From the sequence record SRR20825019_2588: a stretch of DNA of 64,000 nucleotides. One strand, written 5' to 3'. The translations under genes were made by a program, and so were the position numbers. Below, in pieces: positions 2,007 through 57,988 of this stretch. The first letter of the stretch is position 1. Each line of letters opens with the position of its first letter. A model generated the notes under the pieces. It was given only the letters and a program-made list of their open reading frames with translations, made no database searches and was not told where the DNA came from.

Positions 2007-2022
2007 GGCTGGCTGAACTCAC

Positions 2023-3250: not shown

Positions 3251-3272
3251 TGAATTTCCCCGCGCTGAAAAC

Positions 3273-3300: not shown

Positions 3301-3325
3301 TGAATATTAGCAGATTAGTGGCGCG

Positions 3326-4114: not shown

Positions 4115-4237
4115 AAGTCTCTCCTAAACTGCGAATAAAGCGAAATAACTTACCTGATTTTAACATTAACGGGAAGGGCGACCGCGCAGTAATCTCGTGA
4201 TAATCTTGGTCACACATGAGGTTCGAATTTTGACGTT

Positions 4238-34518: not shown

Positions 34519-34520
34519 AT
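34505..34520 (+). repeat. attL core (3' end of ssrA)
   Basis: CGCCGCCTCCACCAAT, identical to 51722-51737. Confidence 0.92.
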
Positions 34521-34554
34521 TTGACATTTCATAATGTCTCATATCGTACTTAAA

Positions 34555-34579
34555 GGCCCGTTATTAAACGGGTTTTTTT
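34555..34579 (+). terminator. Island-supplied terminator for tmRNA
   Basis: gcccgtt-atta-aacgggt followed by T run. Confidence 0.75.
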
Positions 34580-34613
34580 GTGTCTATCATTTCGTGACGT
34601 CTCAGGTTATCTC

Positions 34614-34680
34614 TTGACATGCCCCCACATAGGGGTATAACTATTGGGGCATCTGCAACCTCATAATCGAGGTGCCCCCA
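34614..34680 (+). promoter_or_regulatory. Integrase promoter overlapped by candidate arm-type sites
   Basis: TTGACA (34614)-16 bp-TATAAC (34636); TGCCCCCA at 34620 and 34673, GGGGTAT at 34632, TGGGGCAT at 34645. Confidence 0.55.
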
Positions 34681-34681
34681 A

Positions 34682-35884
34682 ATGCCTCTAACAGATATCA
34701 AAATCAAGAATGCCAAACTAGGCACTAGGCCCGATGGATCAACAACATCAAAGTCATACCGCATTACTGATGGACGTGGTTTATACCTGGAAGTATCCCC
34801 AAGAGGCGGAAAGTATTGGCGCTTCAAGTATCGCATCAACGGTAAAGAAAAAAGACTATCTCTTGGCGTTTATCCAGACGTGAGCCTTAAGCTTGCAAGA
34901 GAGAGAAGAGATAACTCCAGAAAACAAGTGGCTGAAGGGATAGATCCCTAAGAGACGAGAAAGGCAGAGAAAATAGCTCAAGCTGGTATGGAAAGCTTCG
35001 AGGTTGTTGCTCGGGAATGGCATGGGAAATTCAAAATAAACTGGTCTCAAAGCCATTCTGAGCGAATATTAGCAAGGCTTGAAAATGACGTTTTCCCTTG
35101 GTTAGGAAAAGTTAATGTTGCCGAAATTTCACCGCCAAGACTACTCCAGACTTTGAGAAGAGTTGAGAGCAGAGGTGCTCTTGAAACAGCACACCGAATT
35201 CATCAGATATGCAGTCAAATTTTCCGTTATGCAATTGCTACAGGCAGAGCTGAGAGAGATCCAGCAGCTGATCTTAGAGGTGCTCTACCACCATCAAGGC
35301 CAAAACATCACGCATCTATCACCGAGCCTGAAAAAATTGGTGAGTTAATGCGGGCTATACAAAATTACTCGGGCACATTTGTGACTGCATGTGCTCTGAA
35401 GTTCGCCCCGCTAGTTTTTGTTCGTCCTGGCGAGCTCAGAAAAGCGGAATGGTCGGAGTTTGACTTTGGTAATGCAGAGTGGCGTATACCCGCAGAGAAA
35501 ATGAAGATGAAAACTCTGCACATTGTTCCGCTATCTTCACAAGCCCTAGACGTGTTGACTGAACTTGAACCGTTTACAGGTTCAAGTAAGTATCTCTTTC
35601 CATCACTAAGAACTTCGTCACGATCTATGAGTGAAAACACCATAAATGGTGCTTTAAGGCGTTTAGGTTATACAAAAGATGAAATGACGGGACATGGATT
35701 TCGCTCTATGGCCTCGACAATATTGAATGAACAGGGTTGGAGTAAAGATGCTATTGAAAGGCAACTTGCTCATAGTGAGCGTGATGGTGTGAGAGCAGCA
35801 TATAACTATGCTGAATACTTACCAGAGAGAAAAGAAATGATGCAGGCTTGGGCTGATTATTTGGATAGCCTCGCTGATTGGTGA
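34682..35884 (+). pseudogene. P4-like tyrosine integrase interrupted by an in-frame TAA (34949-34951)
   Basis: Arm-binding domain (DGRGLYL..KYWRFKYR..LGVYP) and catalytic domain (RPGE, HGFR, LAH, Y) are in one frame: ..GAT CCC TAA GAG ACG..GGT ATG. Confidence 0.88.
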
Positions 35885-35896
35885 GTAGGGCGGGAG

Positions 35897-36334
35897 ATGG
35901 CAAAAAAGAGCAGTGTTGAGCTAATGGATGCGGGTAAAGAACTTGGACGCTTACCTGATGAGAAAGAGCTGTACAGACTACTTGAGTACTACCCAAGTTA
36001 AGTTTGGGAGCACAGAAAACGCCTACTTGAGGGGTACCTCAATAATCAGACTATTGAACAGCTACTAGCAGAAAAAATTGCTGCTAAAGGTATAAAAACT
36101 CCAATCTCTGGCAGAGCAAAAGGAGGACACATTCGATGGATTAAAGAAAAAATAAAGCGGACTGTTGTCAGGATAAAATTTTTGAGGTATTGCCTTGATG
36201 ATGGCTTGTCTAAAAAACAGGCAAATCAAAAGTTACTTAAAGAATACGGTTCGTCTAAAGAAACATCAGACTCGGGTCAGTCTAATATTCGAAAAATGAC
36301 GCATTCTGCGGAGTTTGATAAAAAACATAAGTAA
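35897..36334 (+). pseudogene. 145-codon basic hypothetical gene with in-frame TAA (35999-36001); absent from ORF track
   Basis: GGGAG RBS, MAKKSSVELM..LEYYPS*VWEHRKRLL..FDKKHK*; frame stays open for 110 codons after the stop in AT-rich DNA. Confidence 0.6.
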
Positions 36335-36472
36335 AAAGTCACTTATTAAATAAAAACAAAAACCTTTTAAATACAACTGTATACAGCATTTTTCAGCACT
36401 TTCCCGCTGGAGTCCTTTCCCATAAAACCCGTAGATGGTTCAATTAACCTCTATTTCTTTTGAGGTTAAGTG

Positions 36473-36646
36473 ATGAAGTTAATCCGCTTACCAGAAGTCT
36501 GCAATCTGACAGGGCTCTCCAGGTCAAGTCTCTACAGAGCTATCAACGCTGGCTTATTCCCAAGATCAGTTCAACTGGGTCAGCGCTCAGTAGCATGGAG
36601 ACTGGATCAAGTTGAAGAATGGATTAACTCACGACCCGAAAATTAA
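36473..36646 (+). CDS. alpA: AlpA family regulator / recombination directionality factor (57 aa, below ORF-track cutoff)
   Basis: MKLIRLPEVCNLTGLSRSSLYRAINAGLFPRSVQLGQRSVAWRLDQVEEWINSRPEN; GAGG RBS. Confidence 0.92.
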   Translation: MKLIRLPEVCNLTGLSRSSLYRAINAGLFPRSVQLGQRSVAWRLDQVEEWINSRPEN

Positions 36647-36969
36647 AGCTTTTTTGCAGTTTATTAATGGCGTAAAACTGCACGTGCGAATATTCAGCGG
36701 ACTAACCACCTGCTGTCTCTCCCTGCACGACGCTGGGTACCCTGCTTATGTTATCGAGGGTAGAAAGAGGGAGGGCAAGAAGGGGTTTTACATAGCGATC
36801 CTGGCTCCACAAGGTTGAGGCTCTGTCTCGCCGTGGTAAGAACATAATTCCCTTACTCTTAATTGTCTATGGGGTAAGGGGCGAATATTCAAACCACGGT
36901 TGAGATTTAACATTAAATAGTAAAAGGACTGTTCTCTATTTAAAGTTATTTTTATTAGGAGAAATAGTT

Positions 36970-37188
36970 ATGGCTAGTGGCCAAGTCGATATCAGATATT
37001 CAAAAAGAACTAACAAATATAGATTACGTTTTCACGCTGTAGCTCATGATCAATTAGAGATGATTTTGTTAGCTTTGAAAGATGGACGAGAAGAGGCTAA
37101 CACAATGTATGACTCAGTGGCATTGGACCGTATCTGTATGTCTTACATTGAATCGAAAAACGGCAAACCTAAAGATTTGGCCCAGTGA
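36970..37188 (+). CDS. Small hypothetical protein (72 aa)
   Basis: Strong AGGAG RBS and ATG; family not recognised. Confidence 0.65.
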   Translation: MASGQVDIRYSKRTNKYRLRFHAVAHDQLEMILLALKDGREEANTMYDSVALDRICMSYIESKNGKPKDLAQ

Positions 37189-37247
37189 AATTAATTTCAC
37201 TGCGCAGTGCGTTTGAAGTTTTTTGATTAAATTTGAAGAAATAACCC

Positions 37248-37628
37248 ATGTCTCTAAAGCCAAAACAAGACATAGCTGCGTTGAGGGTAGCCAGTGGAGA
37301 AAAGCTAAAAGATATTGCTAAAGATTTAAACGTATCCGCAGCAACACTCTCAAACTGGCAAAGTGATCCTCACTTCATTGCAGCAGTAAATGCTAATAGG
37401 AAAGAGCTATTAAAGTCTTCATCCGACCGTCTGGCTAGTTTAGCTGCTATAGCGATGGACAGACTAGAGAGCTTGATTTTGTCAGATGACCAAAAAGTTA
37501 GTTTCCAAGCTATTAAGTTGGTAATGTCGGCAAATGGTTTAATTGGAGATAGTGAAAGGTCTTTCTTGAGATACGGGGCATGGATTGGCCCCACCTCTCC
37601 ACGAGCGATTATAAGAGAGAAAAAATAA
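37248..37628 (+). CDS. HTH protein (phBC6A51-like / small-terminase-like N-terminus)
   Basis: KLKDIAKDLNVSAATLSNWQSDPHF helix-turn-helix followed by helical region. Confidence 0.6.
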   Translation: MSLKPKQDIAALRVASGEKLKDIAKDLNVSAATLSNWQSDPHFIAAVNANRKELLKSSSDRLASLAAIAMDRLESLILSDDQKVSFQAIKLVMSANGLIGDSERSFLRYGAWIGPTSPRAIIREKK

Positions 37629-37645
37629 AATCTTCAGTAAGGTAG

Positions 37646-38101
37646 TTAATTTGTCCCCCTAATAGTTTGAAAAGCACAGTCAGAATTAAGCCAGTCGATA
37701 ACTTTTTCTGACAAAACTTCAGGAACAAGTTTCTTCTTCCCTTTTATCGCGCATTCCCAGACTATCATCACCCTCCAGCCCTGCTCTAAAAGTGCTTTGA
37801 TGTTCCTATTATCCCTTTCAACATTGGCGTGGATTTTATCTCTCCAGAAGCTTCCCCGAGTCTTTGGCCATTTGAAAAGTGGACAATCATGTCCATGCCA
37901 AAAACAACCGTTTATCTCTATAACTGCTTTGTATTTCGGAAGAACTAAGTCTGGTCTTCCGGGTAGTGTCTTATGGTGCAACCTATATCGAAGACCCTTC
38001 GCATGCAGCATTTTCCTCAGGGTTACCTCAGGTTTTGTATTTTTACCTCTGATCATGGACATATTTCTTGAGCGTGTGCCCGTGTCATGTACATCAGACA
38101 T
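37646..38101 (-). CDS. vsr: Very short patch repair endonuclease
   Basis: RSRNMSMIRGKNTKPE, LPGRPDLV, GCFWHGH, VWECA. Confidence 0.95.
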   Translation of the reverse strand: MSDVHDTGTRSRNMSMIRGKNTKPEVTLRKMLHAKGLRYRLHHKTLPGRPDLVLPKYKAVIEINGCFWHGHDCPLFKWPKTRGSFWRDKIHANVERDNRNIKALLEQGWRVMIVWECAIKGKKKLVPEVLSEKVIDWLNSDCAFQTIRGTN

Positions 38102-38182
38102 ATTCTTCACCTCCGTAAACACCCTGGTTTATAGACAAGAACCTGGTATCATTGCTCCGAACTATTTTGGCTATTACAAAAA

Positions 38183-40000
38183 ATGAAAAAGTCACAAAAA
38201 AAAATAAAAGTTATCGATTTATTTGCTGGTCCGGGTGGTTTGGGGGAAGGCTTCAGCAACTGCGAGAATGATTCACCTTTTGAAATAGCTATGTCAGTTG
38301 AGTTTGAAAAGCATGCGCATAAAACTCTCACGCTACGGGCACTGTATAGAAAACTTAATGAGACCGAACGCTCGAAATACTACCTCCCATACATCCAGAG
38401 TAAATCTGAATCAGAAAAAGAGCGTAACTTTAAAAATCTAACTGACAGTTGCTCAGCAAAATGGGTAGAAGCAAAGCATGAAACAATGGGTGAACCTCAT
38501 GCGCTGGGAAATCCAGAAAGATGGAGAAAAATTAAAAACGGCGAGACTCTAACGGAAGGTGACTTTCTTCCCACAAAGCATGAGCAGGCTATCATGCAGA
38601 GAATTGACGATATTAAAGCTGAGCATAAAGGACCATTAATTGTAATTGGTGGGCCTCCATGTCAGGCATATTCTGTTAATGGACGGAACAGGATAAGAGC
38701 CCAGAAAGACTACTCACCAGAAAATGATGAACGTTTTTTCTTGTATCAAGAGTATCTCAAGGTTTTGGACCGCGCAGACCCAGATATTTTTGTAATGGAG
38801 AACGTTGAGGGAATTCTCACTGCTAGGTTGGCAGATGGACAGCACATCTTTCCGAAAATTAAAGATGAACTTGTTATGCCAAATAGAAGCCGCGATGAGC
38901 AGTACGATATCTACTCCTTTGTGAGAGCACCATATGAGAGTGCCTCACAGGAGCATGGCCCTCTCTACCGGAAGAATTCAGATTATGTGATAACTGCGAG
39001 CGATTATGGAGTTCCACAAAATAGAAAGCGTGTAATTTTGCTGGGAGTCAAGCATAAATATGGTCCAGTCCAATCAGTGCTGAAAAAATCATCAGCTATC
39101 CCCAGAACTGCTGAATTACTATCTGGTTTACCTGTACTGAGAAGTGGCATGAGTGATGAGAGTGACAATTCTTCTACTTGGCTCATCAATTGGAAAAGGA
39201 ATAAAGGTGAGTTGATTGATTTACTGACTAAACACAGCACTGCAGAAGAAGTAGCTCAGCAAATTTGCCAAAACAAACTATTCAGAAAAAATCCTTCTAG
39301 GGATAAGTTACTAAGTTTGGGGGGCATGGTTTTCAATTCAGAGTACAAAGAACTTAGAAGTTTTTACATTGATGCATATGAAAAAACGCTCAGAGAGCTA
39401 GAGTCATGTAATGAATCTCTTGATTTATCTACAGATGGTGATGGTAAAGGAAATAATTTTTTTTGTTCTTCGGATAGTAACAATGGGGCCTTCACAGAGA
39501 GTTTTAAAACTGACTATCCTGAACTTTACTCTTGGCTCAACAAAAATATTGATGGTGCTTTGAATCATATTACCCGGGGTCATATGAAGAATGATTTGAA
39601 ACGGTACATGTTCTCTGCCGCGTGGTCTTCAGCCTACAGGAGGCAAAAAAGCCCATCTCCAAAGAGCAAAGACTTCCCACTAGATCTATCTCCGGAGCAT
39701 GGAAATTGGCACACGGGTCATCATGCAGATAGATTCAGAACTGTAAGTTATGACACCATACCATACACAATTACGAGCCATCTTAGAAAAGATGGTCACG
39801 CGCAAATTCATTACGATATCTCACAGAATCGCTCAATTACGGTTCGTGAGGCAGCTCGAATTCAGACGTTTCCAGATGACTACTATTTCGAGGGATCGCT
39901 TGGCTGGCAATATCAGCAAGTAGGTAATGCCGTACCACCCTATCTTGCTGTCCAGATTGCAAGACTAGTAAGGGAATTATTTGACTCCATAGCCGTCTAG
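38183..40000 (+). CDS. dcm: DNA (cytosine-5)-methyltransferase with large insertions
   Basis: IDLFAGPGG (I), GGPPCQ (IV), ENV (VI), PQNRKR (VIII), TVREAARIQTFPD (IX), VGNAVPP (X). Confidence 0.92.
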   Translation: MKKSQKKIKVIDLFAGPGGLGEGFSNCENDSPFEIAMSVEFEKHAHKTLTLRALYRKLNETERSKYYLPYIQSKSESEKERNFKNLTDSCSAKWVEAKHETMGEPHALGNPERWRKIKNGETLTEGDFLPTKHEQAIMQRIDDIKAEHKGPLIVIGGPPCQAYSVNGRNRIRAQKDYSPENDERFFLYQEYLKVLDRADPDIFVMENVEGILTARLADGQHIFPKIKDELVMPNRSRDEQYDIYSFVRAPYESASQEHGPLYRKNSDYVITASDYGVPQNRKRVILLGVKHKYGPVQSVLKKSSAIPRTAELLSGLPVLRSGMSDESDNSSTWLINWKRNKGELIDLLTKHSTAEEVAQQICQNKLFRKNPSRDKLLSLGGMVFNSEYKELRSFYIDAYEKTLRELESCNESLDLSTDGDGKGNNFFCSSDSNNGAFTESFKTDYPELYSWLNKNIDGALNHITRGHMKNDLKRYMFSAAWSSAYRRQKSPSPKSKDFPLDLSPEHGNWHTGHHADRFRTVSYDTIPYTITSHLRKDGHAQIHYDISQNRSITVREAARIQTFPDDYYFEGSLGWQYQQVGNAVPPYLAVQIARLVRELFDSIAV

Positions 40001-40298
40001 CTGCGAAGACTTTACACGCAGCCCTTGATTGAATAATTTAGGCCTCACTGACGAACTGATGCTGTGAAATGAGTTTAAAATATTTGTTCGTCTAATTATT
40101 CTCCCATCACAATGAGAAATTTAGATGTCCTCTGATCCTGAGCTAAAGGTGGGTCTTGGCAAAATTTGACTGCAATACTTGGGAAGTGATACTGATTTCA
40201 ACAGAAATCTACAATCAATAGTTGGTTTTGCTTTCATAACTATGTTGTTTGTAGCTAGGGATGTGACTTTCAGAACAGAATCATAAGGGACTATTTCA

Positions 40299-41810
40299 AT
40301 GTCAAAAGCAACTGGCGCAGTCAATAAGGGGCAAGAGGAATATGAGATTGCTCAGCCAGATCCCTCAGGTTTAGTTGAGTCACTCAGGGCATTTGGCTAC
40401 ACCCTCAAAACAGCAATCGCTGATTTAATAGATAACAGTATATCTGCCAAGTCCAAAAATATTTGGATTAGATTTGAATGGCTTGGAGCAAAGTCATTCA
40501 TTCTGATTAAAGACGATGGCAAAGGCATGTCTGAAACTGAGCTGGTCGCTGCTATGAAAGCAAGCTCCAAAAGCCCCTTGGAAGAGAGAGATCCTGAAGA
40601 TTTGGGTAGATTTGGCTTGGGTCTGAAAACAGCATCATTTTCGCAATGCAGAAAACTATCGGTTTTTTCTAGGCAAATAGAGGGGGACTTGGTCTCGAGA
40701 ACATGGGATCTGGATTATATAAATGAGTCGCGAGAGTGGCGTCTTTTAAAGCATCCGACTGGTAACCCACTTACGGAGTTTAATGAAAGTATTGAAGATA
40801 AAGGCACAATTGTGCTGTGGGAAAAAATGGACAGAGTGGTTGGTTCATCAAAGGAAGATGATAACGCTGCCTACAAGCGATTCTTAGAAACTATCGAGGA
40901 GGTACGTGCCCATCTTGGAATGGTTTTTCATCGATTCATTGATAAACCGTACGGACTGAAATTATGGATTAATGGTCGTAAGATTGAAGCATGGGATCCA
41001 TTTCTAACAGATCAAATTGCTACTCAGGAATTACCCTCAGAGAACTTTACGTGTCAAGGGACTGCACTCAAAATTACCCCTTTTATACTGCCCCACCAAT
41101 CAAAAATTTCTTCTGAAACTCACAAACTTGCCGCTGGTCCGGGAGGCTGGAATGCTCAACAGGGATTTTACGTATATCGTAATAAACGTCTTTTAGTTGA
41201 AGGCGATTGGCTTGGACTTGGATTTAAAAAAGAAGAACATTACAAGCTTGCGCGTATATTGATTGACCTACCAAACACAATGGATGATGCATGGCAGATT
41301 GATGTAAAAAAATCACGTGCAAAGCCGCCAGGTGAGCTGCGTGAAGATTTGAAGCGTATTGCAAAACTTGCTAGAGAAAGAGCTGTTCAGATTTATCGTC
41401 ACCGTGGGAAAGTCACAGCAAGGCGAAATTCACAAAGCCATGTCTTTTTGTGGGAACAAAAGACACGACACAGTAAATATTTTTATGCCATTAACAGAAA
41501 GCATCCTCTAATTGAAGAAGCACTGGCAGAGCTTGGTAAATCTAAATTGGAGCCAGTTTTGAGGATGCTCGAAGAGACAATACCTTCAGCACATATAATA
41601 ATCTCAGGTGCTGAGGAGCCCCATAAAATTGCGGCCCCATTAGAAGAAAACTCATATGAAGAAGTAGAGCCACTCATAGAAAAGCTCTACATGTCTTTTT
41701 TGAGTAATGGGTGTAGTGCTGATGAAGCAATAGAGAAATTAATACTTATTGAACCGTTCAATAACAGACCAGAATTTATAGAAATTTTTAAGACACATAG
41801 AAAGGGATAG
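40299..41810 (+). CDS. MORC/MutL-like GHKL ATPase (MzaB-like)
   Basis: AIADLIDNSISA, DDGKGM, DLGRFGLGLKTASFSQ, QGFYVYRNKRL, WQIDVKKS. Confidence 0.9.
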   Translation: MSKATGAVNKGQEEYEIAQPDPSGLVESLRAFGYTLKTAIADLIDNSISAKSKNIWIRFEWLGAKSFILIKDDGKGMSETELVAAMKASSKSPLEERDPEDLGRFGLGLKTASFSQCRKLSVFSRQIEGDLVSRTWDLDYINESREWRLLKHPTGNPLTEFNESIEDKGTIVLWEKMDRVVGSSKEDDNAAYKRFLETIEEVRAHLGMVFHRFIDKPYGLKLWINGRKIEAWDPFLTDQIATQELPSENFTCQGTALKITPFILPHQSKISSETHKLAAGPGGWNAQQGFYVYRNKRLLVEGDWLGLGFKKEEHYKLARILIDLPNTMDDAWQIDVKKSRAKPPGELREDLKRIAKLARERAVQIYRHRGKVTARRNSQSHVFLWEQKTRHSKYFYAINRKHPLIEEALAELGKSKLEPVLRMLEETIPSAHIIISGAEEPHKIAAPLEENSYEEVEPLIEKLYMSFLSNGCSADEAIEKLILIEPFNNRPEFIEIFKTHRKG

Positions 41811-41811
41811 C

Positions 41812-44583
41812 ATGGCTCACTACGATTATGATGATGTTAAATCAAACATCATGAGAATTCTTCGTAAAAAGGAAACTGTAACTAAGGAAATGATTGTCAA
41901 TGAAATTCGATTAGTGATGGATGCGTTCAAAGCAGCCAATCTTGTTGATGATATAGATGAAGATGCATTATTTCGAGACATTTCAACACACATCAGTGTT
42001 TGGCAGCCAGATCCCTCAGTACTTAGAGACAAAAAGCACATAAACTGGCTACCTGAGTACAAATCAAAGATTGATTGGAATTTTTGGAGAAGATACCAGG
42101 AGTATTTAGAAGAAGAGAAAAACTGGTCAAGAAATGTCACTGGTAAGCTCGATTCAACAACGGACAACATTCTAGGTGACCTAGGTAACCCATTCCAAGA
42201 TGGTAGCTGGGATAGAAGGGGTATGGTTGTTGGAGACGTTCAATCTGGTAAAACTGCAAACTATACAGGACTGATTTGCAAAGCTACTGATGCTGGATAC
42301 AAGTTAATAATTGTTTTGGCAGGTATGACAAATGACCTGAGATCGCAGACTCAATCACGTTTGGATGCTGAATTTCTTGGCTTTGAGAGTGAACTAGGGA
42401 AACTCAATGAAAATGGAAGTCGTATTGGCGTTGGGAAACTTCAGGATCATGGTCAATTATTCGCACAGCCACTTACTTACAGTGCGAAAGATGGCGATTT
42501 TAGAGCCAAAAAAGGAACAAACATTAAACTCGGAGGAAACCCACTCCTTTTGGTTGTAAAAAAGAACAAATCGGTCTTAGAAAGAATCATTAAGTGGGTT
42601 GAGAGTCAGGGCGTCACCCATCCCGAGACAGGGAAAAAGATAGTAAAGGATATTCCTTTGTTGTTATTGGATGATGAGGCAGATAATGCATCGGTTAATA
42701 CTAACCCTGATGAAGATGATGATCCGACGACCATAAATAAAGCAATAAGAAAAATCTTAAATGTATTTTCTCAAAGTTCTTATGTAGGTTACACCGCTAC
42801 TCCATTTGCAAATATATTCATACTTCCAGATGAGGAACGAGCTGATCCTTCAGAGTATGGACCGGATTTATTTCCAAGAAATTTCATTTATTACATTAAC
42901 CCTCCAAATAATTATGTAGGTGCAAAACAAGTATTTGGCTTACCTGATGATGTCGATGACTATGACGAAAACAATCTACAGCTTCCACTCATCAGGGATG
43001 CAAATGACGGCAATATTGTTTTCCCCCCTAGACACAGAACTGACCTGAGAGTACCCAATCTTCCAGAAAGTTTAATAGAGGCGATTCATACCTTCATATT
43101 GAGCTGTGCAGCTAGGCGAGTTAGAGGTCAAAAAGACGTTCATAACTCGATGTTAATTCACGTTACAAGATTCAATTTGGTACAAGAAAAAGTCATTGAA
43201 TTAGTGAGTACAGAGCTGGTCAACATTCAGAGGATGCTTGACTACAAAACTGGCAAACTAGCTAGAGATCTCCTATTAGATTTGGCAAACCTCTGGAAAA
43301 AGGATTTTGTTGATACTACTGAAACTCTTATCAAAGAAATTGATGATGAAAGCCTTACCTCAATCGCCTGGTCTGATGTGGAGAGTGAGTTGCTTGAAGC
43401 TGCCTCAAAAATTGAGGTCAGGGGGATAAATGGTATGGCTGGAGGTCAGCTTGACTATGATGACCATCCCAGAGGTCTGAATGTAATAGCAGTTGGTGGC
43501 GATAAGTTATCAAGAGGATTGACACTTGAATCATTGACGGTCAGTTACTATTTGCGCCCAGCAAGAAATTACGACACGCTCCTCCAGATGGGACGTTGGT
43601 TCGGATATCGTCCTGGCTATTTAGATCTATGCAGACTCTTTACCACAGAAGAAATTGTTGGCTGGTACCAACACATATCAGTTGCAACAGAAGAATTAAA
43701 GCGTGAGTTTAGCCTTATGGAGCTGAGTCACCTCACGCCCGAAGATTACGGCTTGAAGGTTAGAACTCATCCAGATGGTTTGAATATAACTGCTGCAAAC
43801 AAAATTCGTAACGGAACTCGATTGCAAGTAGCATTTTCTGGGCAGCTTTCACAGACAACAGTTTTTCAAAAAGACAACTATATACAGAAACGTAATTTTG
43901 AACATACTGATGGATGGCTAAAAAAACTTGGTCTTACAAACACAAAATTAAGTAGTGATAACAGGTTTGTATGGTCAGATGTTTCATCCGATTTGGTTAA
44001 GCTGTTTCTCAAGGACTTTAGAACACACCCAGCTTGCAGAAAGGCTGAGACAGATTTGTTAATCAAATATATTGAGAAGCTAAATGAATACGATGAGTTG
44101 AAGGATTGGACTGTAGCGCTTATTTCTAATACTTCAGCTCAGAATAGCTATATGGTTGGCTCACAAAACGTTGGGTTGATTAAAAGGAGTGATAGCACTC
44201 CACACACCGACCTTTACATGTTGCCAAATTCCAACATATTAAGCCCAAATGACCAAATGCTAGACTTGGATGAGGCACAAATCGGACAGGCACTTAAGGA
44301 AACTCAAGAGGCCTGGGCGCAAGGAAAGTCTAGGGCGAAAAACAAACCTCAAGCACCAAGTGGACCGTTCATCAGGAAAGCACGACCAAAAGAAAAAGGA
44401 TTGCTGCTAGTTTATCCCCTAGATAACACTCTAGTTCTTCTCGATAATAATAGCTTTACCGACACGCCAATTATTGGGTTTGCTGTTAGTTTTCCAGTCG
44501 GCTCAAGAGATGAAACAGTTGAATATCAGGTAAACACTAAATATTGGTCAGATCGCTATGGAGAGGAAGAAGATGATGCATAG
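41812..44583 (+). CDS. Z1-domain SF2 helicase-like protein (MzaC-like)
   Basis: GDVQSGKT Walker A, DDEAD, YTATP, SRGLTLE, QMGRWFGYR. Confidence 0.9.
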   Translation: MAHYDYDDVKSNIMRILRKKETVTKEMIVNEIRLVMDAFKAANLVDDIDEDALFRDISTHISVWQPDPSVLRDKKHINWLPEYKSKIDWNFWRRYQEYLEEEKNWSRNVTGKLDSTTDNILGDLGNPFQDGSWDRRGMVVGDVQSGKTANYTGLICKATDAGYKLIIVLAGMTNDLRSQTQSRLDAEFLGFESELGKLNENGSRIGVGKLQDHGQLFAQPLTYSAKDGDFRAKKGTNIKLGGNPLLLVVKKNKSVLERIIKWVESQGVTHPETGKKIVKDIPLLLLDDEADNASVNTNPDEDDDPTTINKAIRKILNVFSQSSYVGYTATPFANIFILPDEERADPSEYGPDLFPRNFIYYINPPNNYVGAKQVFGLPDDVDDYDENNLQLPLIRDANDGNIVFPPRHRTDLRVPNLPESLIEAIHTFILSCAARRVRGQKDVHNSMLIHVTRFNLVQEKVIELVSTELVNIQRMLDYKTGKLARDLLLDLANLWKKDFVDTTETLIKEIDDESLTSIAWSDVESELLEAASKIEVRGINGMAGGQLDYDDHPRGLNVIAVGGDKLSRGLTLESLTVSYYLRPARNYDTLLQMGRWFGYRPGYLDLCRLFTTEEIVGWYQHISVATEELKREFSLMELSHLTPEDYGLKVRTHPDGLNITAANKIRNGTRLQVAFSGQLSQTTVFQKDNYIQKRNFEHTDGWLKKLGLTNTKLSSDNRFVWSDVSSDLVKLFLKDFRTHPACRKAETDLLIKYIEKLNEYDELKDWTVALISNTSAQNSYMVGSQNVGLIKRSDSTPHTDLYMLPNSNILSPNDQMLDLDEAQIGQALKETQEAWAQGKSRAKNKPQAPSGPFIRKARPKEKGLLLVYPLDNTLVLLDNNSFTDTPIIGFAVSFPVGSRDETVEYQVNTKYWSDRYGEEEDDA

Positions 44584-45589
44584 CGAAATTTGGGAAGAGC
44601 TGGAAACAAGAGCCTCCAGAGAAAGAGGCATTGGTACCTTAAAAAGGATGATAGGTACAAAAAAAATCTGCCCAATGTTTATAGGTATCAACCGTCCCGG
44701 AAACATAAGGGTATTCATCCTTGAAGTTCCTAAAGATAACTTGCCTTCACCAAGTCGCATTCCGGACTCTAACGGTTTCGATTTTAAAGTACAGATTGTT
44801 GGTGATGAGACAAACCGGGACCACGTCAGCCTGATACTTTACTCAGCCAGTTCCAGATATGATGAAATTTTTGCTTCTATATCGAATGATCTCTTCTTAA
44901 ATTTAAATGAATTAACAACTACTAAAGAAATTGTTTCTAAATTCTTGAACAGACTACAACTCTGGCAGTCATTCTTTCAGAAGCAAAACTCAGATGGTTT
45001 GAGTGAGGAAGCTCAAAAAGGTCTCTACGGTGAGTTGTTCTTTATAAACAAATACGTTTTTCCGAAGTTTGAACCCATGGAGTCGCTGACCTATTGGTTG
45101 GGAACAAATAAAAGGCAGCATGATTTCCAGTTTGGCGACCTCTCCGTTGAGGTTAAAACTACATCATCCAAACAGCATCAGAAATTACATATTTCTAGCG
45201 AGCAACAGTTAGATGATTCATTAGTGAATCAGCTGTATTTGTTTTTTATTTCAGTATCACTTATCGACAATCTAAATAAGACACTGCCATCACTAGTCGA
45301 AGAGGTACGTGAATATTTATCCATAAACACTGCTGCATTGGAACGATTCAACAGTATCCTGATTGAGAGAGGGTATTTAGATATCCACAGACATCTATAT
45401 GAATCGACAGGCTATTCATTAAGAAAATCAGGTTTTTTTCTTGTTAGCGATGATTTTCCTAGGATTACAGAACATGACCTCAGACCGGGTGTTGGAGACC
45501 TTAAGTACACTATTGATTTAGACGTGTGTGTGCCATTCTCCATCTCAGAAGATGAGTTTGTGACCAATTTAGAACGGTTAATGAAATGA
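44573..45589 (+). CDS. PD-(D/E)XK motif protein, DUF4420-like (MzaD-like)
   Basis: GLYGEL..W..HDF..VEVKTT..ISSEQQL..FPRI; overlaps Z1 stop. Confidence 0.87.
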   Translation: MMHSEIWEELETRASRERGIGTLKRMIGTKKICPMFIGINRPGNIRVFILEVPKDNLPSPSRIPDSNGFDFKVQIVGDETNRDHVSLILYSASSRYDEIFASISNDLFLNLNELTTTKEIVSKFLNRLQLWQSFFQKQNSDGLSEEAQKGLYGELFFINKYVFPKFEPMESLTYWLGTNKRQHDFQFGDLSVEVKTTSSKQHQKLHISSEQQLDDSLVNQLYLFFISVSLIDNLNKTLPSLVEEVREYLSINTAALERFNSILIERGYLDIHRHLYESTGYSLRKSGFFLVSDDFPRITEHDLRPGVGDLKYTIDLDVCVPFSISEDEFVTNLERLMK

Positions 45590-47631
45590 ATGAAAATGAG
45601 TTAATGGTTCAGTTCTTGGAGAATTTGCACCAAGAGGTCATATCTGCAGCTGACAGCGAAGGTGAAGATGGTGACTTTAGGGTCGACCAATTTACACAGA
45701 AAATGGCTGAATACCTGATTGAGGCTGGAGAGATTGATGATATTGAAGTCTGTTTCTACAAGAGTAAAGGAATGCAGATTAATGGATACAGCATAAGCTC
45801 TGATGAGGACTGCATTGATCTATTTGTGAGTGTTTTTAATCACAATTCCTCGCCAGTTTCAGTTACTAAAACTCAATGTGAAACATTATTTAGGCAGGCT
45901 CAAACAGTCCTAAAAAAAGGAATATCTGGATTCCATAATCAATTAGAAGAGGCTTCTGAAATATACGATGCTTTTCAGCGCATATATGAAGTACAGAAAA
46001 GTTTAACCAGATGTAGAATCTTTCTGCTGACAGATGGAATGGTAAAGCATACTGAATTTACAGCGGAAAGCGTAGATGACATCTCAGTATTTTGTAATGT
46101 GTGGGACCTTACTCGTATATACCGCTTTGCAAGCTCAGGAAAGAAATTTGAACCCATAGAAATAGATTTCCAAAATGAATTTGAGACGCTACTACCATGC
46201 CTTTCTCTGTCCGACCCTGCATCTGATTACGAGGGTTACCTTGCTGTAATACCCGGTGAAATATTAGCAAAAGTTTATCAAAGATACGGCCCAAGGCTCT
46301 TGGAGCGAAACGTTCGTTCTTTCCTCCAAGCTCGAGGCAAGGTAAACAAAGGAATAAGAAAGACAATTTTGGAGGAGCCTCATAGATTTTTTGCTTATAA
46401 CAACGGCATCACCGCAACAGCAGATTTGATTGAATTCGATGCTGAAGATAAATCAAAGATCAAGAAACTTAGGAATTTACAAATCGTTAACGGTGGTCAA
46501 ACAACTGCATCTCTCTACCATACAGCCATTAAGGATAAAGCTGAATTGGGAGGTATCTATGTTCAAGCCAAGATATCGCTCATACCTGAAGAATACGTTA
46601 ATGAAATAGTACCCCTGATTTCGCGTTACGCAAATAGCCAAAATAAAGTTAACGACGCAGATTTTTATGCTAACGATCCTTTTCATGTGGACTTGGAAGA
46701 GCTATCGAGAACCATATGGACTCCAGCTATTGGCGGGACAAGTCGCGCGACCAGATGGTTTTATGAAAGAGCCAGAGGACAGTACATGGATGCGAAGAGC
46801 CGGGAGTCTACACCGACAAGAAAAAAACAATTCGAGGCGACTTCACCTACTAGGCAGAAATTCACTAAGACCGACCTGGCAAAATATGAAAATACATGGA
46901 TGCAACTGCCTCACATTGTCAGTCTTGGTGCCCAGAAAAATTTCAATCACTTTTCGATACAACTAAAAGAGAGGGGAAGTGTAAAAGTCGATAAAAGATA
47001 TTTTGAGCATTTGATTGCAAAAGCAATATTGTTTAAACATGCTGATAAAATTGTCAAAGATCAAAATTATGGCGGTTACAAAGCTAATATCGTTACTTAC
47101 ACCCTTGCCTGGATCTCTCACCACACCTCACAAAGACTTGATCTGGATTCGATTTGGAACAAGCAAGAAATCTCTCCCGCACTTCAAGAAGTGATTAGAG
47201 AAGTTTCCATAATTGTTCAACAAAAGCTCACCAACCCACCTCAGAATCGCAATATTACTGAGTGGTGTAAACGCAAAGAATGCTGGGAGCAAATTAAAGA
47301 TACCAATATTGATGTAATTAGTCGCATAAATAATGAACTCCTGGACATTAGTAAACCAAGCGTCAACCAACCTGACATAGGCATTAATGCACCTAATGAT
47401 TCGGATTTAGAAGTCATTAAAAAGATTAAAACGGTACCGGCCGAAGAATGGTTCAAGATTGCAAAATGGGCCAAAGAGACTGATAACCTTCAGCCATGGC
47501 AGAGAAGTCTGGCATTTTCTATTGGAAAATTGTGTAGCCAGTCCAAAGAACCTAGCTACAAACAAGCCAATCATGGTTTGAAAATCCTAGACGAGGTAAG
47601 AAAACTAGGTTTTAAAGAGTCGGTTGCATAG
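45586..47631 (+). CDS. AIPR family protein (MzaE-like)
   Basis: LLERNVRSFL, FFAYNNGI, QIVNGGQT, WFYERARGQY; ATGA overlap with upstream gene. Confidence 0.9.
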   Translation: MNENELMVQFLENLHQEVISAADSEGEDGDFRVDQFTQKMAEYLIEAGEIDDIEVCFYKSKGMQINGYSISSDEDCIDLFVSVFNHNSSPVSVTKTQCETLFRQAQTVLKKGISGFHNQLEEASEIYDAFQRIYEVQKSLTRCRIFLLTDGMVKHTEFTAESVDDISVFCNVWDLTRIYRFASSGKKFEPIEIDFQNEFETLLPCLSLSDPASDYEGYLAVIPGEILAKVYQRYGPRLLERNVRSFLQARGKVNKGIRKTILEEPHRFFAYNNGITATADLIEFDAEDKSKIKKLRNLQIVNGGQTTASLYHTAIKDKAELGGIYVQAKISLIPEEYVNEIVPLISRYANSQNKVNDADFYANDPFHVDLEELSRTIWTPAIGGTSRATRWFYERARGQYMDAKSRESTPTRKKQFEATSPTRQKFTKTDLAKYENTWMQLPHIVSLGAQKNFNHFSIQLKERGSVKVDKRYFEHLIAKAILFKHADKIVKDQNYGGYKANIVTYTLAWISHHTSQRLDLDSIWNKQEISPALQEVIREVSIIVQQKLTNPPQNRNITEWCKRKECWEQIKDTNIDVISRINNELLDISKPSVNQPDIGINAPNDSDLEVIKKIKTVPAEEWFKIAKWAKETDNLQPWQRSLAFSIGKLCSQSKEPSYKQANHGLKILDEVRKLGFKESVA

Positions 47632-47667
47632 GTTTTCGTTAAAACAAAAATATGATCATGGAAGACT

Positions 47668-48861
47668 ATGACAAGAGATTTACCATCGCCAGATAGAGTG
47701 ATTTCCCTTGGTGAGGGGTTACCAAAGATTCCTGAACGGTTACTGTTAGCACATGCCCGAGGTGAAGTTCTATTCATTTGTGGTGCTGGAGTTTCGATGC
47801 CTAAGTTACCTGACTTTAGGAAATTAGTTATTCAGGTATACAGCGTCCTAGATACTGCTGTTCACAAAGTCATCGATGCATTACCTAGTGGAATCTGTAA
47901 TCACTGGGAAACAGATGTTTCTATACTCAATGAGTCCCAAAAAGCTGAAGTCAAGCGTTTTATCGTCGGTGATTATGATGTTGTCCTTGGAATGCTGGAA
48001 AGGCGGTTGGATGGTCAAACCTTGGGTGACAGTAAGGTCAGAAAAGCTGTTAAGAAATGTCTCAAAACCACTGGAGTTGGGCCAGCTCAAATTCACCGCT
48101 CCTTAATGAAGCTATCAGATAGAGGTGGAGTTACAACAGTTGTCACAACCAACTTTGATTTACTTCTCGAAAGTGCAAATACTTCCAAAAGTGGTGTGGT
48201 GCAAACCTATTCGCTAGGAGGTATTCCCAGACCCACAAGGCAGTCAGATTTTGCAGGGGTCTTACATATACATGGTGCGCTTGATACTAACCCTAGAAGG
48301 ATCTCTGAGCTAGTTCTCACTGAGCAAGATTTTGGTGAGTTCTATCTTCGTCGTCGTGTAGTCCCTGATTTTATCTATGATGCAGCGAGGTTATTCAATC
48401 TTGTCTTGGTTGGTTATAGTGCAAATGACCCACCCATGCGTTATTTATTGAATGCAGTTGCAGCTGATGGTACAAGATTCGAAGATCTCAAGGAGCGTTT
48501 TACATTTCTCGGAATGAATAAGCCCGATCCAGTTGCTTTGGAAGATTGGAAAGCACGTGGTATTACCCCAATTAGTTATGACTCTAATGATGCACATAAG
48601 GAATTACATGACACCTTAAAGCGTTGGTCAGAGCTCTCAGCGATCAATGGACACCAAAGAAACCTTGATGCTGAAATTAAGCGAATCATGAAGAATCCTA
48701 GATCATCTACACCAGTAGAAAAAAGAGATTTATTTGATCACTTGATAAGACGAAGCAACTCTGCTGAGAGGAATAGGTTGTCTGAATTGGCATCAGCAGC
48801 AGGTGCAAATATTGATTGGCTTGATGCAATAATCCAAATCGGCGCAGAGAAAGAGAGGTAA
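47668..48861 (+). CDS. SIR2-like (SIR2_2) NADase protein resembling the N-terminal part of Dsr1
   Basis: IPERLLLAH..FICGAGVS, TTNFD, HIHG, DFGEFYL, VGYSANDPPMRY, W..RGITPI. Confidence 0.88.
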   Translation: MTRDLPSPDRVISLGEGLPKIPERLLLAHARGEVLFICGAGVSMPKLPDFRKLVIQVYSVLDTAVHKVIDALPSGICNHWETDVSILNESQKAEVKRFIVGDYDVVLGMLERRLDGQTLGDSKVRKAVKKCLKTTGVGPAQIHRSLMKLSDRGGVTTVVTTNFDLLLESANTSKSGVVQTYSLGGIPRPTRQSDFAGVLHIHGALDTNPRRISELVLTEQDFGEFYLRRRVVPDFIYDAARLFNLVLVGYSANDPPMRYLLNAVAADGTRFEDLKERFTFLGMNKPDPVALEDWKARGITPISYDSNDAHKELHDTLKRWSELSAINGHQRNLDAEIKRIMKNPRSSTPVEKRDLFDHLIRRSNSAERNRLSELASAAGANIDWLDAIIQIGAEKER

Positions 48862-48869
48862 TAATCCAC

Positions 48870-51578
48870 ATGAGACAGTTGTGGGGTTACTTAGATGAGT
48901 CTGAGCGTGAAAGTGTCCAGGCTGCCGTAGCATTTCTAAAAAATCGTCTACAGGACGCTTCTGTAGTCGAATGGGCTGTAGAACTAAAATCAAACCAAAG
49001 AGTGGAAAGGTTAGCCATTGAGCATTTATTAGAGGGACCTGAAGCAAAAACTCTCATTGAGCCATGGCAATCTGTATGGCGCTTAATTCAGGAGAGTTGG
49101 TCAAATATTCCTGTTGAAGTTAATACGAGATATAGCGGGATATATGAAGTAAAAGAACGGATAAAAATAGGTGAAAGGTCGGGAGCTCTGGTAAAGAGAA
49201 TAACCGAGCTTGTTCAACCTCACCTTGAAATAAAAAAACTAAGTTCTTGGCGTAAATCGTCAGATACGAAATTAAAGCGACCCAAAACCATTCATCAACT
49301 TATTTCACCTAAGATTACAAGCGGTGAACTGATTGACCCTAAATTGTTAAAGCTGGATTTGATAGATGACATTGAGTTTATAAAATCTTTGGCTCTGAGT
49401 ATCGAGTCATCGATGAATTATGGCCTTGATTTGGCTAGGAGGCTGGGCTGGAGAGAGCTGAGTGGTATGTGGCAACTTGGTGGACTCACAAGAGTTAAAT
49501 ATGTTTCTACTGACTCTAATGATTTGAATAACAGTGAGCCTGACAAATATCATCGAGGCATCGCACCTAGTGTAAAACTCTTAACCAGTGTTTTGAGTCG
49601 CTTGGGAGAATTGAATGTTGGTGAAGCTAAGTACTTTATGGATAAATGGCGTCTCAGACCAAGTCCCCTAATGGATCGGCTCTGGGCAGCCATGGCAAGT
49701 TCGCGATCTCTTGTCGAAGCTGATGAGGTAAGTGAATTTCTATCCAGACTGAACAGTCAGCTTTATTGGGACATTCACTCCTATCCAGAGATTGCAGAAT
49801 TAAGAACTTATCGTTTTAGAGACTTGGATGAGAAGTCACAGCGAAAAATAGCTTCGAAAATCATGAAGGGGCCACCTAGAAACTTCTTCAAGAACAAAGT
49901 AGATGAAGATAGAAGAGAGGAAGCTCGCTTATATTGTTCACTAAGAGAGTTGAGACGTATAGAAATTGCCGGTGGGGAGCTACCACCGGTTGAGCGATTT
50001 TTTCTCAGAGCTAATGTTGATAGGTTTGATAATTTATCGAGTATGGAAATCGATTCTGGGTTTCCTCAGGGAGTTAAGGTTGAATCTTACTCTCCAGAGC
50101 CTGATGATAAATACAACCAGTTACATGGTTTGGAAAGGCTTAATCAACTAGAAAAAGCACTTTCTGAGGGAGGAAGGGGCTGGAATGATGAACCCGCAGA
50201 GTCAGCCATTTCTTGGTTGCAAAACTCAAACAATGCATGTCTTATTCTTGAAGATTTTGTAGCCACTGGTGGTCAGATAGACAAATTTCAACGACTTATG
50301 GATAGGGTTTTGTGGGCGCACAAGAAGCGCAACATAGATTCCGCTTCTGCTGAGTCGATTAGCGAAAATAAGTCACAATTACGACTCGCTATTTCGCTTA
50401 TTAACAGACACTCTGATATTACTCTAAAACGTCTAATAAATGGCCTTTCCGAATGGTTTTCAGCTTGGGGGAAAGAGGCCATTCAATCAGATATGGGGTT
50501 TGAGTTGTGGAAGCGAGTTTGGCCTTTTGCGGAGGATGAGACAAACTCTTCATACAACCATATTGAACAGCAAGAACTAAGTGTATCAGATGCCCATGAT
50601 AGACCTTTGGTAACCGATACGCTGAATACTCCGGCTGGTAAGCTAACAGGAGTCTTATTTGATTACTGGTCGTCTCTTAATGACAAGCAAAAGCCATTTG
50701 CACCGGAAAGTAAAGAGCATGAAATTAGAGACATACTCATCAAAGCAAAAGGCCGTAGTGGTGAAATTGTAAGGTACAGGCTATCAGAGTATTTGCCATA
50801 TTTTTTGAATGTGGATAAGCAATGGACTGAAAAATATTTAATTAATCCTTTGCTAGAAAATACTGATAATTCTGTAGCTCTCTGGCAAGCGCTAGCTCAG
50901 CGGGTTCATGGTCGAAAAGTTTTAAAAGTGATAGGCGATGAGATGCTCGAAAGGACTATCGATCAGCGTCTAGGTCGTGAAAGTCGTGAGAGATTGGTCT
51001 TCAGCCTTGTAATTGAAATAATGCATGCATACAAAGAGAAACGTGCACCTGTTATTTCATCTGCTTCAATTCAACAAATGCTGAGAACTGTTGAGGATGA
51101 AGTCAGGGCATTTGCCGCCAGTACAATTCAACGATTTGTTAAGGAAATATCAGCTGAAGAGGATAATCCAGCTGAGATTTTTCTCACTTGTGCGTATCCC
51201 TTGCTCAGGGATATTTGGCCAAAAGAACGGTCACTTGTTACTCTAGGAGTATCAGCTGCATTTGCGGACTTACCCGCAACTTCAAGGGATGCTTTTGTTC
51301 AAGCGGTTGAGACATTGGAACCTTATTTGGTGCCATTTGACTGTTGGTCATTACTCGACTTTGGCCTTTATGGTGATCACAATGATGTATCAAAAGTCAT
51401 AGATGATGAAAATAAAGCTATGGCTTTGTTGAAACTATTAAATCTTACGATCGGCACCTCTCAAGGTTCAGTAGTGCCCTATGACTTAACTGATGCGCTT
51501 GAGCAAATAAAAAGAATAAATCCAGAGTTCATTAAAAACCAAACATATCGAAGACTAGCAACCCTGGCAAGACGTTAG
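48870..51578 (+). CDS. Large helical protein resembling the C-terminal two-thirds of Dsr1
   Basis: Motifs GPPR, LNTPAGKL, VDKQWTEKYL, IWPKERSL, YRRL fall in the order I recall for the Dsr1 C-terminal region (recall only, no alignment run). Confidence 0.65.
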   Translation: MRQLWGYLDESERESVQAAVAFLKNRLQDASVVEWAVELKSNQRVERLAIEHLLEGPEAKTLIEPWQSVWRLIQESWSNIPVEVNTRYSGIYEVKERIKIGERSGALVKRITELVQPHLEIKKLSSWRKSSDTKLKRPKTIHQLISPKITSGELIDPKLLKLDLIDDIEFIKSLALSIESSMNYGLDLARRLGWRELSGMWQLGGLTRVKYVSTDSNDLNNSEPDKYHRGIAPSVKLLTSVLSRLGELNVGEAKYFMDKWRLRPSPLMDRLWAAMASSRSLVEADEVSEFLSRLNSQLYWDIHSYPEIAELRTYRFRDLDEKSQRKIASKIMKGPPRNFFKNKVDEDRREEARLYCSLRELRRIEIAGGELPPVERFFLRANVDRFDNLSSMEIDSGFPQGVKVESYSPEPDDKYNQLHGLERLNQLEKALSEGGRGWNDEPAESAISWLQNSNNACLILEDFVATGGQIDKFQRLMDRVLWAHKKRNIDSASAESISENKSQLRLAISLINRHSDITLKRLINGLSEWFSAWGKEAIQSDMGFELWKRVWPFAEDETNSSYNHIEQQELSVSDAHDRPLVTDTLNTPAGKLTGVLFDYWSSLNDKQKPFAPESKEHEIRDILIKAKGRSGEIVRYRLSEYLPYFLNVDKQWTEKYLINPLLENTDNSVALWQALAQRVHGRKVLKVIGDEMLERTIDQRLGRESRERLVFSLVIEIMHAYKEKRAPVISSASIQQMLRTVEDEVRAFAASTIQRFVKEISAEEDNPAEIFLTCAYPLLRDIWPKERSLVTLGVSAAFADLPATSRDAFVQAVETLEPYLVPFDCWSLLDFGLYGDHNDVSKVIDDENKAMALLKLLNLTIGTSQGSVVPYDLTDALEQIKRINPEFIKNQTYRRLATLARR

Positions 51579-51721
51579 CCCGAATTTTACCTTGCATAAA
51601 TAATATCGCGAAATATTTAACAATTAGATTTACTGTGTAGGGGCATAAATGGGTGCAGATAATTTTCAGTGAAATTTAAAATCACATATATTTCAATCTT
51701 ATAGAATATTAATTAGGATGA

Positions 51722-51737
51722 CGCCGCCTCCACCAAT
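51722..51737 (+). repeat. attR core (duplicated ssrA 3' end)
   Basis: CGCCGCCTCCACCAAT. Confidence 0.92.
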
Positions 51738-57305: not shown

Positions 57306-57329
57306 CGGCTTAAATATTTTGATATTTGT

Positions 57330-57372
57330 TTGAAAATACCCATTATGGGGATTATAGTACCCATATTGGGTA
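57330..57372 (+). promoter_or_regulatory. Sigma70 promoter with two palindromic operators
   Basis: TTGAAA (57330)-17 bp-TATAGT (57353); CCCAT-T-ATGGG (57339-57349) and TACCCA-TAT-TGGGTA (57358-57372). Confidence 0.7.
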
Positions 57373-57388
57373 TTATTATTGGTGGTCT

Positions 57389-57988
57389 ATGTCAGTCGTT
57401 TCTGTAGCCGATGCTTTATTCACAAAAACGCAACAACGGGTGCTTGGCCTGCTTTACGGCAAGCCTGATAAAAGTTTTTATACCAACGAGATCCTGCGCT
57501 TGGCTGATATGGGACGCGGCACAGTCACGCGTGAGCTTGAAAAGCTGGCTAATGCCGGTCTTGTCGTTGTGTCAAAAGAGGGAAATCAACAACACTATCA
57601 GGCAAATGCGGATAATCCAATTTTTGAGGAGCTGGTATCCATAGCCCGTAAAACCTTTGGTGTGGCTGATGTGATTCGAGAAGCATTAATGAGCCTTGAT
57701 GAAAAATTTGATTCTGCCTTTATCTACGGTTCTGTCGCTAAGAGTGAAGCCACCGCCAACAGTGATATTGATTTGCTAGTTATTTCTGATAGCTTGGCTT
57801 ATGCAGATTTGATGGCGAATCTGATGGCAGCAGAAAAGGTTTTATCCCGTCCAATTAATCCTTCCGTTTATGATGCAGAACAATTCAAACGGAAGTGGCG
57901 AGAAGGTAATGCGTTTATTTCAAAGGTGATGGAGCAACCGAAGATTTGGCTGAAGGGATCAGAAAATGACATTAGCGCAGCTGGATAA
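57389..57988 (+). CDS. wHTH + minimal nucleotidyltransferase (MNT-type antitoxin/regulator)
   Basis: N-terminal HTH, FIYGSVAK..SDIDLLVI NTase motif. Confidence 0.88.
   Translation: MSVVSVADALFTKTQQRVLGLLYGKPDKSFYTNEILRLADMGRGTVTRELEKLANAGLVVVSKEGNQQHYQANADNPIFEELVSIARKTFGVADVIREALMSLDEKFDSAFIYGSVAKSEATANSDIDLLVISDSLAYADLMANLMAAEKVLSRPINPSVYDAEQFKRKWREGNAFISKVMEQPKIWLKGSENDISAAG

Follow-up and report, generated by a model that had tools for sequence, protein, structure and literature searches.

Dsr1, an anti-phage defence protein with an N-terminal SIR2 domain and a large C-terminal helical sensor, is treated as a one-protein system. Can its two functional parts exist as separate genes, or are adjacent genes of this kind the remains of a single gene that was broken? 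The question is raised by a locus in sequence record SRR20825019_2588, of which we analysed a stretch of 64,000 nucleotides (nt), hereafter the window. Here, gene A (47668..48861, plus strand), an ATG-initiated open reading frame (ORF) of 397 amino acids (aa) with a SIR2 domain, is followed on the same strand by gene B (48870..51578), an ATG-initiated ORF of 902 aa, and a preliminary description of the sequence had proposed that the two are a Dsr1 divided into an effector gene and a sensor gene. As set out below, the split is conserved, old and widespread and is not a recent frameshift, and it is likely that A and B constitute a self-contained Dsr1-type anti-phage module encoded by two genes.

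The two proteins and their match to Dsr1

Protein A is predicted to be a SIR2-type NAD+-hydrolysing enzyme (NADase) acting as the effector. It matches the Pfam family SIR2_2 (8.2e-18) and the Dsr1 models of both PADLOC (1e-47, profile positions 56-317 of 1275) and NCBIfam (8.2e-60, 202.7 bits, positions 8-292 of 1263). As a reference we used P0373, a true Dsr1 of 1,260 aa that was picked by scanning long homologues of A and that reaches 2,023 bits against the NCBIfam cut-off of 1,400; A is 33% identical to residues 8-313 of this protein (E 6e-49) and is the counterpart of approximately residues 8-400 of Dsr1. The SIR2 motifs listed in the preliminary description were all found, namely GAGVS (residues 39-43), TTNFD (residues 160-164; 48145..48159, plus strand), HIHG (residues 200-203; 48265..48276, plus strand), and GYSANDPP (residues 249-256), and in an alignment of 22 A sequences the corresponding patterns GAGxS, TTNFD, HxHG, and GYSxxDPP are invariant or nearly so. 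In particular, T160, T161, N162, F163, and D164, which include the conserved Asn of defence SIR2 NADases, are each invariant in 22/22 sequences and align with ITTNFD of true Dsr1, and the equally invariant HIHG (22/22) places H202 opposite the conserved His of LHG in true Dsr1. By analogy with the family, the TTNFD motif presumably has a catalytic role in A. The nearest solved folds to the structural model of A were the SIR2 domain of DSR2 (best match 8wy8_A, E 1.8e-5, TM 0.36 on the query) and then KomC and ThsA, so that all the nearest folds to the predicted structure are defence NADases; the titles of Protein Data Bank entries among these matches name H171A mutants of DSR2. Downstream of the enzymatic domain, A ends in a well-conserved helical tail (approximately residues 330-397).

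Protein B matched no family in a Pfam scan, and the only PADLOC models that it hits are those for Dsr1 (3.5e-26, residues 504-902 against profile positions 898-1272). With the NCBIfam Dsr1 model included (6.4e-36, 123.6 bits), the last 400 residues of B match the C-terminal 370 positions of the Dsr1 models. A more extensive correspondence emerged when a profile built from 21 homologues of B was compared with P0373 using hhalign, which aligned 793 columns, placing columns 14-917 on residues 408-1256 (probability 91.5%, E 8.6e-7, ~21% identity). The C-terminal motifs given in the preliminary description for Dsr1 occur in B in the expected order, GPPR at 334-337, N586.P588.G590, VDKQWTEKYL at 648-657, WPKERSL at 783-789, and YRRL at 893-896, and all five fall on invariant or nearly invariant columns of the 21 homologues; the first three, which were compared with true Dsr1, align with its GPTR, N.P.G, and VD..W....L, respectively. 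The structural model of B consists entirely of helices (predicted local distance difference test score [pLDDT] 71.5), and fold searches with this model returned only generic HEAT/ARM solenoids (TM ~0.2, best Z 10.1). No Dsr or Avs entry was among the listed fold matches, which says nothing on their absence, and a sequence search for solved relatives of B yielded none, the best matches being ribosomal proteins at E >= 0.15.

Because A matches the N-terminus of Dsr1 and B its C-terminus, the pair, with a combined length of 1,299 aa compared to ~1,260 aa, is collinear with the whole of Dsr1, cut near residue 400 on the aligned sequences, in agreement with the homology of both proteins to Dsr1 that the preliminary description had proposed. 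Like Dsr1 (NF041818 / PADLOC Dsr1), the pair comprises a SIR2_2 NADase-type domain with NAD-binding and catalytic-type motifs, followed by a homologous and collinear helical sensor of ~850-900 residues, and it has no conserved third gene: among 325 flanking ORFs from 62 loci, no cluster recurred in more than three loci. Unlike Dsr1, it is not one chain of ~1,200-1,300 aa, but two ORFs in different frames with two stops between them, cut at approximately Dsr1 residue 400, and it does not score above the curated equivalog cut-off of 1,400 bits. Furthermore, it belongs to a distant subfamily that is parted from bona fide Dsr1 by a branch with 100% support in both the SIR2 and the sensor trees. 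In the public records examined, including those of plasmids, the two halves are annotated as "SIR2 family protein" and "hypothetical protein." The pair is a conserved two-gene version of the known Dsr1 system that lies below the annotation cut-offs, not a new kind of system.

Other defence systems resemble the pair in part. DSR2 likewise combines an N-terminal SIR2 NADase with a helical sensor, and its SIR2 domain is the nearest solved fold to A; it differs in being a single chain that, according to literature abstracts, senses a tail tube protein, and the NCBIfam Dsr2 model gave only E 0.15 on A and no match on B, the SIR2 fold being all that is held in common. Avs7 is a STAND NTPase with a sensor that is described as homologous to that of Dsr1, both being triggered by phage major capsid proteins (PMC13581612). 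B is connected to Avs7 here through its homology to the Dsr1 sensor. The pair lacks a STAND NTPase domain, and no Avs7 entries were among the listed fold or sequence matches of B. The SIR2-HerA, Thoeris (ThsA/ThsB), and SIR2-APAZ/pAgo (SPARSA) systems share with the pair the arrangement of a SIR2 NADase effector beside a separate controlling partner gene, but B corresponds to none of their partners (HerA ATPase, TIR protein, Argonaute). The PADLOC models for ThsA, the pAgo-associated protein, and "SIR2" (SIR2-HerA) give weak matches to A (E 1.6e-6 to 0.035), all of them inside the SIR2 core; in the case of ThsA, the match is confined to this core (1.6e-6, residues 140-267). No HerA-type ATPase is adjacent to A, B having no Pfam family, and no TIR or SLOG family was found among the scanned window ORFs of at least 120 aa. 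A proposed tie of Dsr1 to Pfam DUF4020 was not borne out: the protein that passes the Dsr1 cut-off contains only SIR2_2, B has no Pfam match, and DUF4020 was seen only on 10% of one distant Atlas cluster.

Conservation and age of the split

The A/B junction of the window reads ...gagaaagagagg TAA TAA tccac ATG, with the B start at 48870. As the preliminary description had it, A ends in a tandem stop (48859..48864, with stops at 48859-48861 and 48862-48864), B begins 8 nt past the first stop in a different frame (+2 relative to A), and a Shine-Dalgarno-like (SD-like) AGAGAGG (48852..48858, plus strand) lies within the final codons of A, 11 nt upstream of the B start. The reading frame of B is open only from 48825, that is, 34 nt ahead of the A stop, and there is no long hidden overlap between the two genes in the window. 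A single-base change could not fuse the two frames because both stops would have to go as well.

To assess how common this architecture is, we scanned one genome per species for related loci, which returned 65 loci from Alpha-, Beta-, Gamma-, and Deltaproteobacteria, Nitrospirota, Planctomycetota, Latescibacterota, and one metagenome-assembled genome (MAG) of Methanosarcinales. A was absent from 4 of the 65, in two of which B lies at a contig end (L018, L030) and in two of which B is an N-terminally truncated remnant (L022, L026). Among the 61 loci with both halves, 59 encode a complete A that ends just ahead of, or overlaps, the start of B; the remaining two are a fused locus (L045) and a locus with a shortened A (L003). 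The search for the same split in other genomes, which the preliminary description had suggested, located it at the same position in nearly all of the loci with both halves. In 54 of the 61 related loci the stop and start codons overlap, as ATGA (37), GTGA (4), or TGATG (13), and the other 5 of the 59 split junctions have a spacer of 0-11 nt.

Compared with these, the window junction is unusual in detail, not in kind. When it is counted with the others (62 junctions), it is the sole one ending in TAA, and its 8-nt spacing recurs in just one other locus, L051. An in-frame second stop follows the first at 10/62 junctions, 8 of which are TGATGA, so the tandem stop, offered in the preliminary description as an argument for an evolved system, is not a family feature. 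An SD-like tetramer is present 4-20 nt upstream of the B start at 51/60 junctions, compared to 21% expected from random windows in the same A genes, and a core GGAG/GAGG/AGGA at 35/60, compared to 13%. The 8-nt spacer of the window is the exception, and overlap is the rule.

The most immediate alternative is that a recent frameshift or nonsense mutation broke a single-chain Dsr1 and that the two ORFs are decaying remnants. Fused relatives do exist (~70 clusters), the join in fused forms is at exactly the point at which the window pair is split, and the window junction is atypical for the family. A recent break is nevertheless already contradicted, and we regard it as extremely unlikely: the two-gene form is not a recent break because the split is at the same position in 59/61 loci of many phyla; neither window ORF is shortened, and each has all its conserved motifs; and B retains its own ATG and SD-like site. 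Moreover, the nearest relatives of the window pair are also separate proteins, of 397 aa (91% identity) and 899 aa (85% identity), so close homologues are not all fused. Stand-alone homologues of each half number in the hundreds, which, together with the recurrent split, supports the preference in the preliminary description for an evolved two-component system. In a profile-free search of 1.84 billion representatives, 963 relatives of B were found at E <= 0.001; the best 150 of the 963, clustered at 50%, comprise 105 of sensor-only length (850-980 aa), 34 fragments, and 11 fused proteins, the sensor-length representatives being counted by length and an adjacent A being established for the 61 loci. 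Similarly, the best 120 homologues of A are 377-475 aa long (in a search range of 218-695 aa), and 119 of the best 120 homologues of B are 859-925 aa long, the exception being one fused protein of 1,305 aa. A single-protein search of JGI metagenomes gave no close relatives and a search of a phage collection no match, and IMG/VR contained one locus, with B at a contig end.

It is exceedingly improbable that the gene is truly continuous and that the junction arose through faulty assembly or sequencing. The support for the window sequence comes from contigs, not from raw reads, and is weak in that the three supporting runs belong to one study and one of them is possibly the source of the window itself. 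Within this scope, contigs of two runs contain the entire 4,101-nt stretch without any difference, and a 1,415-nt contig of the third covers the junction, also without a difference. An error of this kind would, in addition, have to account for the loss of two stops and a frame change, and the same architecture is present in 59 independent loci.

Programmed -1 frameshifting near the end of A, which would yield a fused protein of Dsr1 length and render the split only apparent, is very unlikely as well. In 58/61 loci and in the window, the frame of B is offset from that of A by -1 (+2), and the B frame is open for 34 nt ahead of the A stop there; however, this constant relation is explained by the ATGA and TGATG overlaps and is not a sign of frameshifting. 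No in-frame X XXY YYZ (canonical -1) slippery heptamer was found at any of 60 junctions, the initiator Met of B is nearly invariant among the 21 homologues, and, as noted above, SD-like motifs are enriched upstream of it.

Several individual loci show particular features of the junction. In L063 (Latescibacterota), A and B are in the same frame and are split only by a TAG directly before the ATG (5998-6003), so that read-through of one stop would yield a fused protein. Near-identical junction sequences in L012, a Desulfobacteraceae MAG, and L019, a MAG of a Methanosarcinales archaeon, point to either a recent transfer between domains or a binning error. L067, from an Agrobacterium vitis plasmid, carries a distant pair (1755-5598) with a B 28% identical to that of the window and a split with a 16-nt spacer; pairs of this type are found on conjugative Agrobacterium and Rhizobium plasmids. 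Because this distant pair is also split, the two-gene form extends past the subfamily of the window.

Has the split Dsr1 been described? Full-text and title searches found no paper describing a two-gene or split Dsr1. The methods of a 2026 Nature paper on this sensor family mention split proteins (PMC13581612); six of its supplementary files contained neither the word "split" nor any of five accessions of B homologues, and its largest tables (MOESM3 and MOESM4), which are outside those six, may list them.

Fused relatives, co-evolution, and a possible mechanism

Fused relatives are not rare in absolute terms, amounting to the ~70 clusters mentioned above, with lengths of 1,220-1,350 aa and 41-68% identity to A. 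Fused forms join the tail of A to the head of B at the same point through 0-7 residues, and one of them, P0118, retains the initiator Met of B. In a tree of the sensor rooted with eight canonical-type Dsr1 proteins, the subfamily forms one fully supported side, and its earliest branches are sensor-only proteins; across the 72 sequences, the 18 fused rows require 14 changes between states, at least 9 of which are forced by well-supported branches, and in the first tree 11 changes were needed for 12 fused rows. In the tree of the SIR2 domain, the fused forms are basal; this tree cannot decide the ancestral state because its split rows are only the 21 sequences closest to the window. Our reading of these phylogenies is that the fused and split states have probably interchanged many times, with the split state dominant. 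On the two trees, either fission or fusion may have come first. A broader proposal, which we advance tentatively and with considerable doubt, is that the two-gene form, far from being a broken Dsr1, is the prevailing natural arrangement in a large Dsr1-like subfamily that has gone unannotated, in which effector and sensor are independently folding partners that have been repeatedly joined and separated.

The two genes evolve as a unit, judging from their pairwise divergence. Among the 51 loci that comprise the window and the 50 related loci passing an intact-ORF filter, the pairwise identities of A and B are correlated (Mantel r 0.80, 0/999 permutations as high). A is more conserved than B in 1,263 of 1,275 pairs, with mean identities of 66% and 52%, respectively, which is the pattern to be expected if the effector is fixed and the sensor diversifies.

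These observations, together with what is reported for related systems, suggest a mechanism. E. coli Dsr1 is described as having a sensor in common with Avs7 and as being triggered through it by a phage major capsid protein (PMC12803255, PMC13581612), and a preprint by Garb et al. reports that Dsr1 lowers NAD+ during infection. In the split version, A, the SIR2 NADase effector, and B, the large alpha-solenoid sensor that in canonical Dsr1 is on the same chain, would probably be transcribed together; translation would be coupled through the overlapping stop and start codons in most relatives, and in the window B would be initiated from its own SD-like site behind the 8-nt spacer. The two proteins would then form a non-covalent complex in which the conserved helical tail of A contacts the N-terminal part of B, the tail being the likely docking element because it lies directly ahead of the B head in the fused relatives. 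B would keep A inactive until it binds a phage structural protein, for which homology with E. coli Dsr1 suggests the major capsid protein as a possibility, whereupon A would hydrolyse NAD+ and phage replication would halt. Binding of A to B, the trigger, the NADase activity, and the protection are all steps that we infer by analogy.

A variant of this mechanism, rather than a different identity for the pair, is that B is chiefly an antitoxin-like inhibitor of A, which on its own would be a constitutively toxic NADase, and that defence follows when B is removed, titrated, or degraded. The overlap of stop and start codons in 54/61 loci favours linked synthesis of the kind known from toxin-antitoxin pairs, conservation is far higher in A than in B, and the join of 0-7 residues in the fused relatives puts the sensor right beside the enzyme. 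Conversely, B comes second in the gene order and would be a very large antitoxin, and the finding reported for the studied systems, that the sensor binds a phage protein and that the effector is required for the trigger-induced toxicity (PMC12803255), fits activation as well as release. We consider this variant rather unlikely, and sequence alone does not tell an activating B from one that restrains an active A.

A number of observations weigh against the assignment of the pair to a functional Dsr1-type module. The structural models are of moderate quality only, with a pLDDT of 66.3 for A that falls below 50 in the catalytic region and the 71.5 given above for B, the best fold matches of which (Z 10.1) are generic. 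The sequence models cover only residues 502-902 of B, and its N-terminal half is supported by the single profile alignment at 91.5% probability; given that B is just ~21% identical to true Dsr1 over the aligned columns, the trigger may differ from the capsid protein. The bit scores of A and B are below the curated cut-off, as are those of even the fused members of the subfamily, which reach only 244-288 bits. Not every copy of the pair is intact, frame changes being present inside A or B in five loci (L001, L007, L047, L057, and L059). The association of A with B is itself inferred from the sequences, and coupling may be weaker in the window, where a spacer takes the place of the usual overlap and the SD-like site is 11 nt from the ATG. 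Finally, the frequency of defence-type neighbours given below has no control. Homology to and collinearity with the whole of Dsr1, the retention of the catalytic-type motifs, the recurrence of the split, the co-divergence of A and B, and the location in a defence island are the grounds on which we regard a Dsr1-type module as likely.

Genomic setting and implications

In the window, the A/B pair is located in a genomic island of ~17.2 kb (34505-51737) inserted at the tmRNA gene (34154-34518), which lies right after smpB. The island is bordered by a perfect 16-nt direct repeat, one copy of which is at the 3' end of the tmRNA gene (34505-34520) and the other at 51722-51737, and has a G+C content of ~40%, compared to ~50% outside. 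A and B are its last genes, downstream of, and on the same strand as, a Mza-type system (38183-47631) that consists of a C-5 cytosine methylase (605 aa) and, after it, PADLOC matches to MzaB, MzaC (Z1 domain), MzaD (DUF4420), and MzaE (AIPR). A starts 36 nt beyond MzaE, and because no terminator-like site was reported between the two, co-transcription of A with the Mza genes is possible. The integrase gene of the island (34667-35884) has an in-frame stop at 34949-34951, with the Arm DNA-binding domain (PF13356, 1.8e-27) on one side of it and the central and catalytic domains on the other; with the stop in this position, the integrase has probably lost its activity and the island its mobility. 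Outside the island, a MarR/HTH region and a nucleotidyltransferase domain (PF01909, PF18765) occur together in a 220-aa ORF (57326-57988).

Defence-type genes also accompany the pair elsewhere. Among 36 related loci examined, for which 132 of 223 listed neighbours were scanned, 10 have a defence-type neighbour, including type I restriction-modification, Old/Gabija-like, and mad3/mad8 genes, PDC candidates, and HNH or restriction enzymes.

Whereas Dsr1 has been treated as a single protein, its functional parts are here separate, co-evolving genes in dozens of species. Because the split pairs score below the curated cut-off, Dsr1-type immunity is probably undercounted in surveys that rely on such thresholds. 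The gain is incremental, the system being of a known kind. The split form nonetheless provides an experimental handle, since each half can be expressed, mutated, and titrated separately, so that one can ask directly whether the NADase is inhibited or activated by the sensor and which target the sensor recognises. Should the two-gene form prove to be the main natural state of the subfamily, a Dsr1-type sensor would control its NADase in trans and could at the same time act like an antitoxin, restraining an enzyme that would otherwise be toxic; the pairs would then offer a natural, ready-made system for dissecting how recognition of the capsid is relayed to a SIR2 effector, and it might be possible to exchange sensors and effectors from one module to another.

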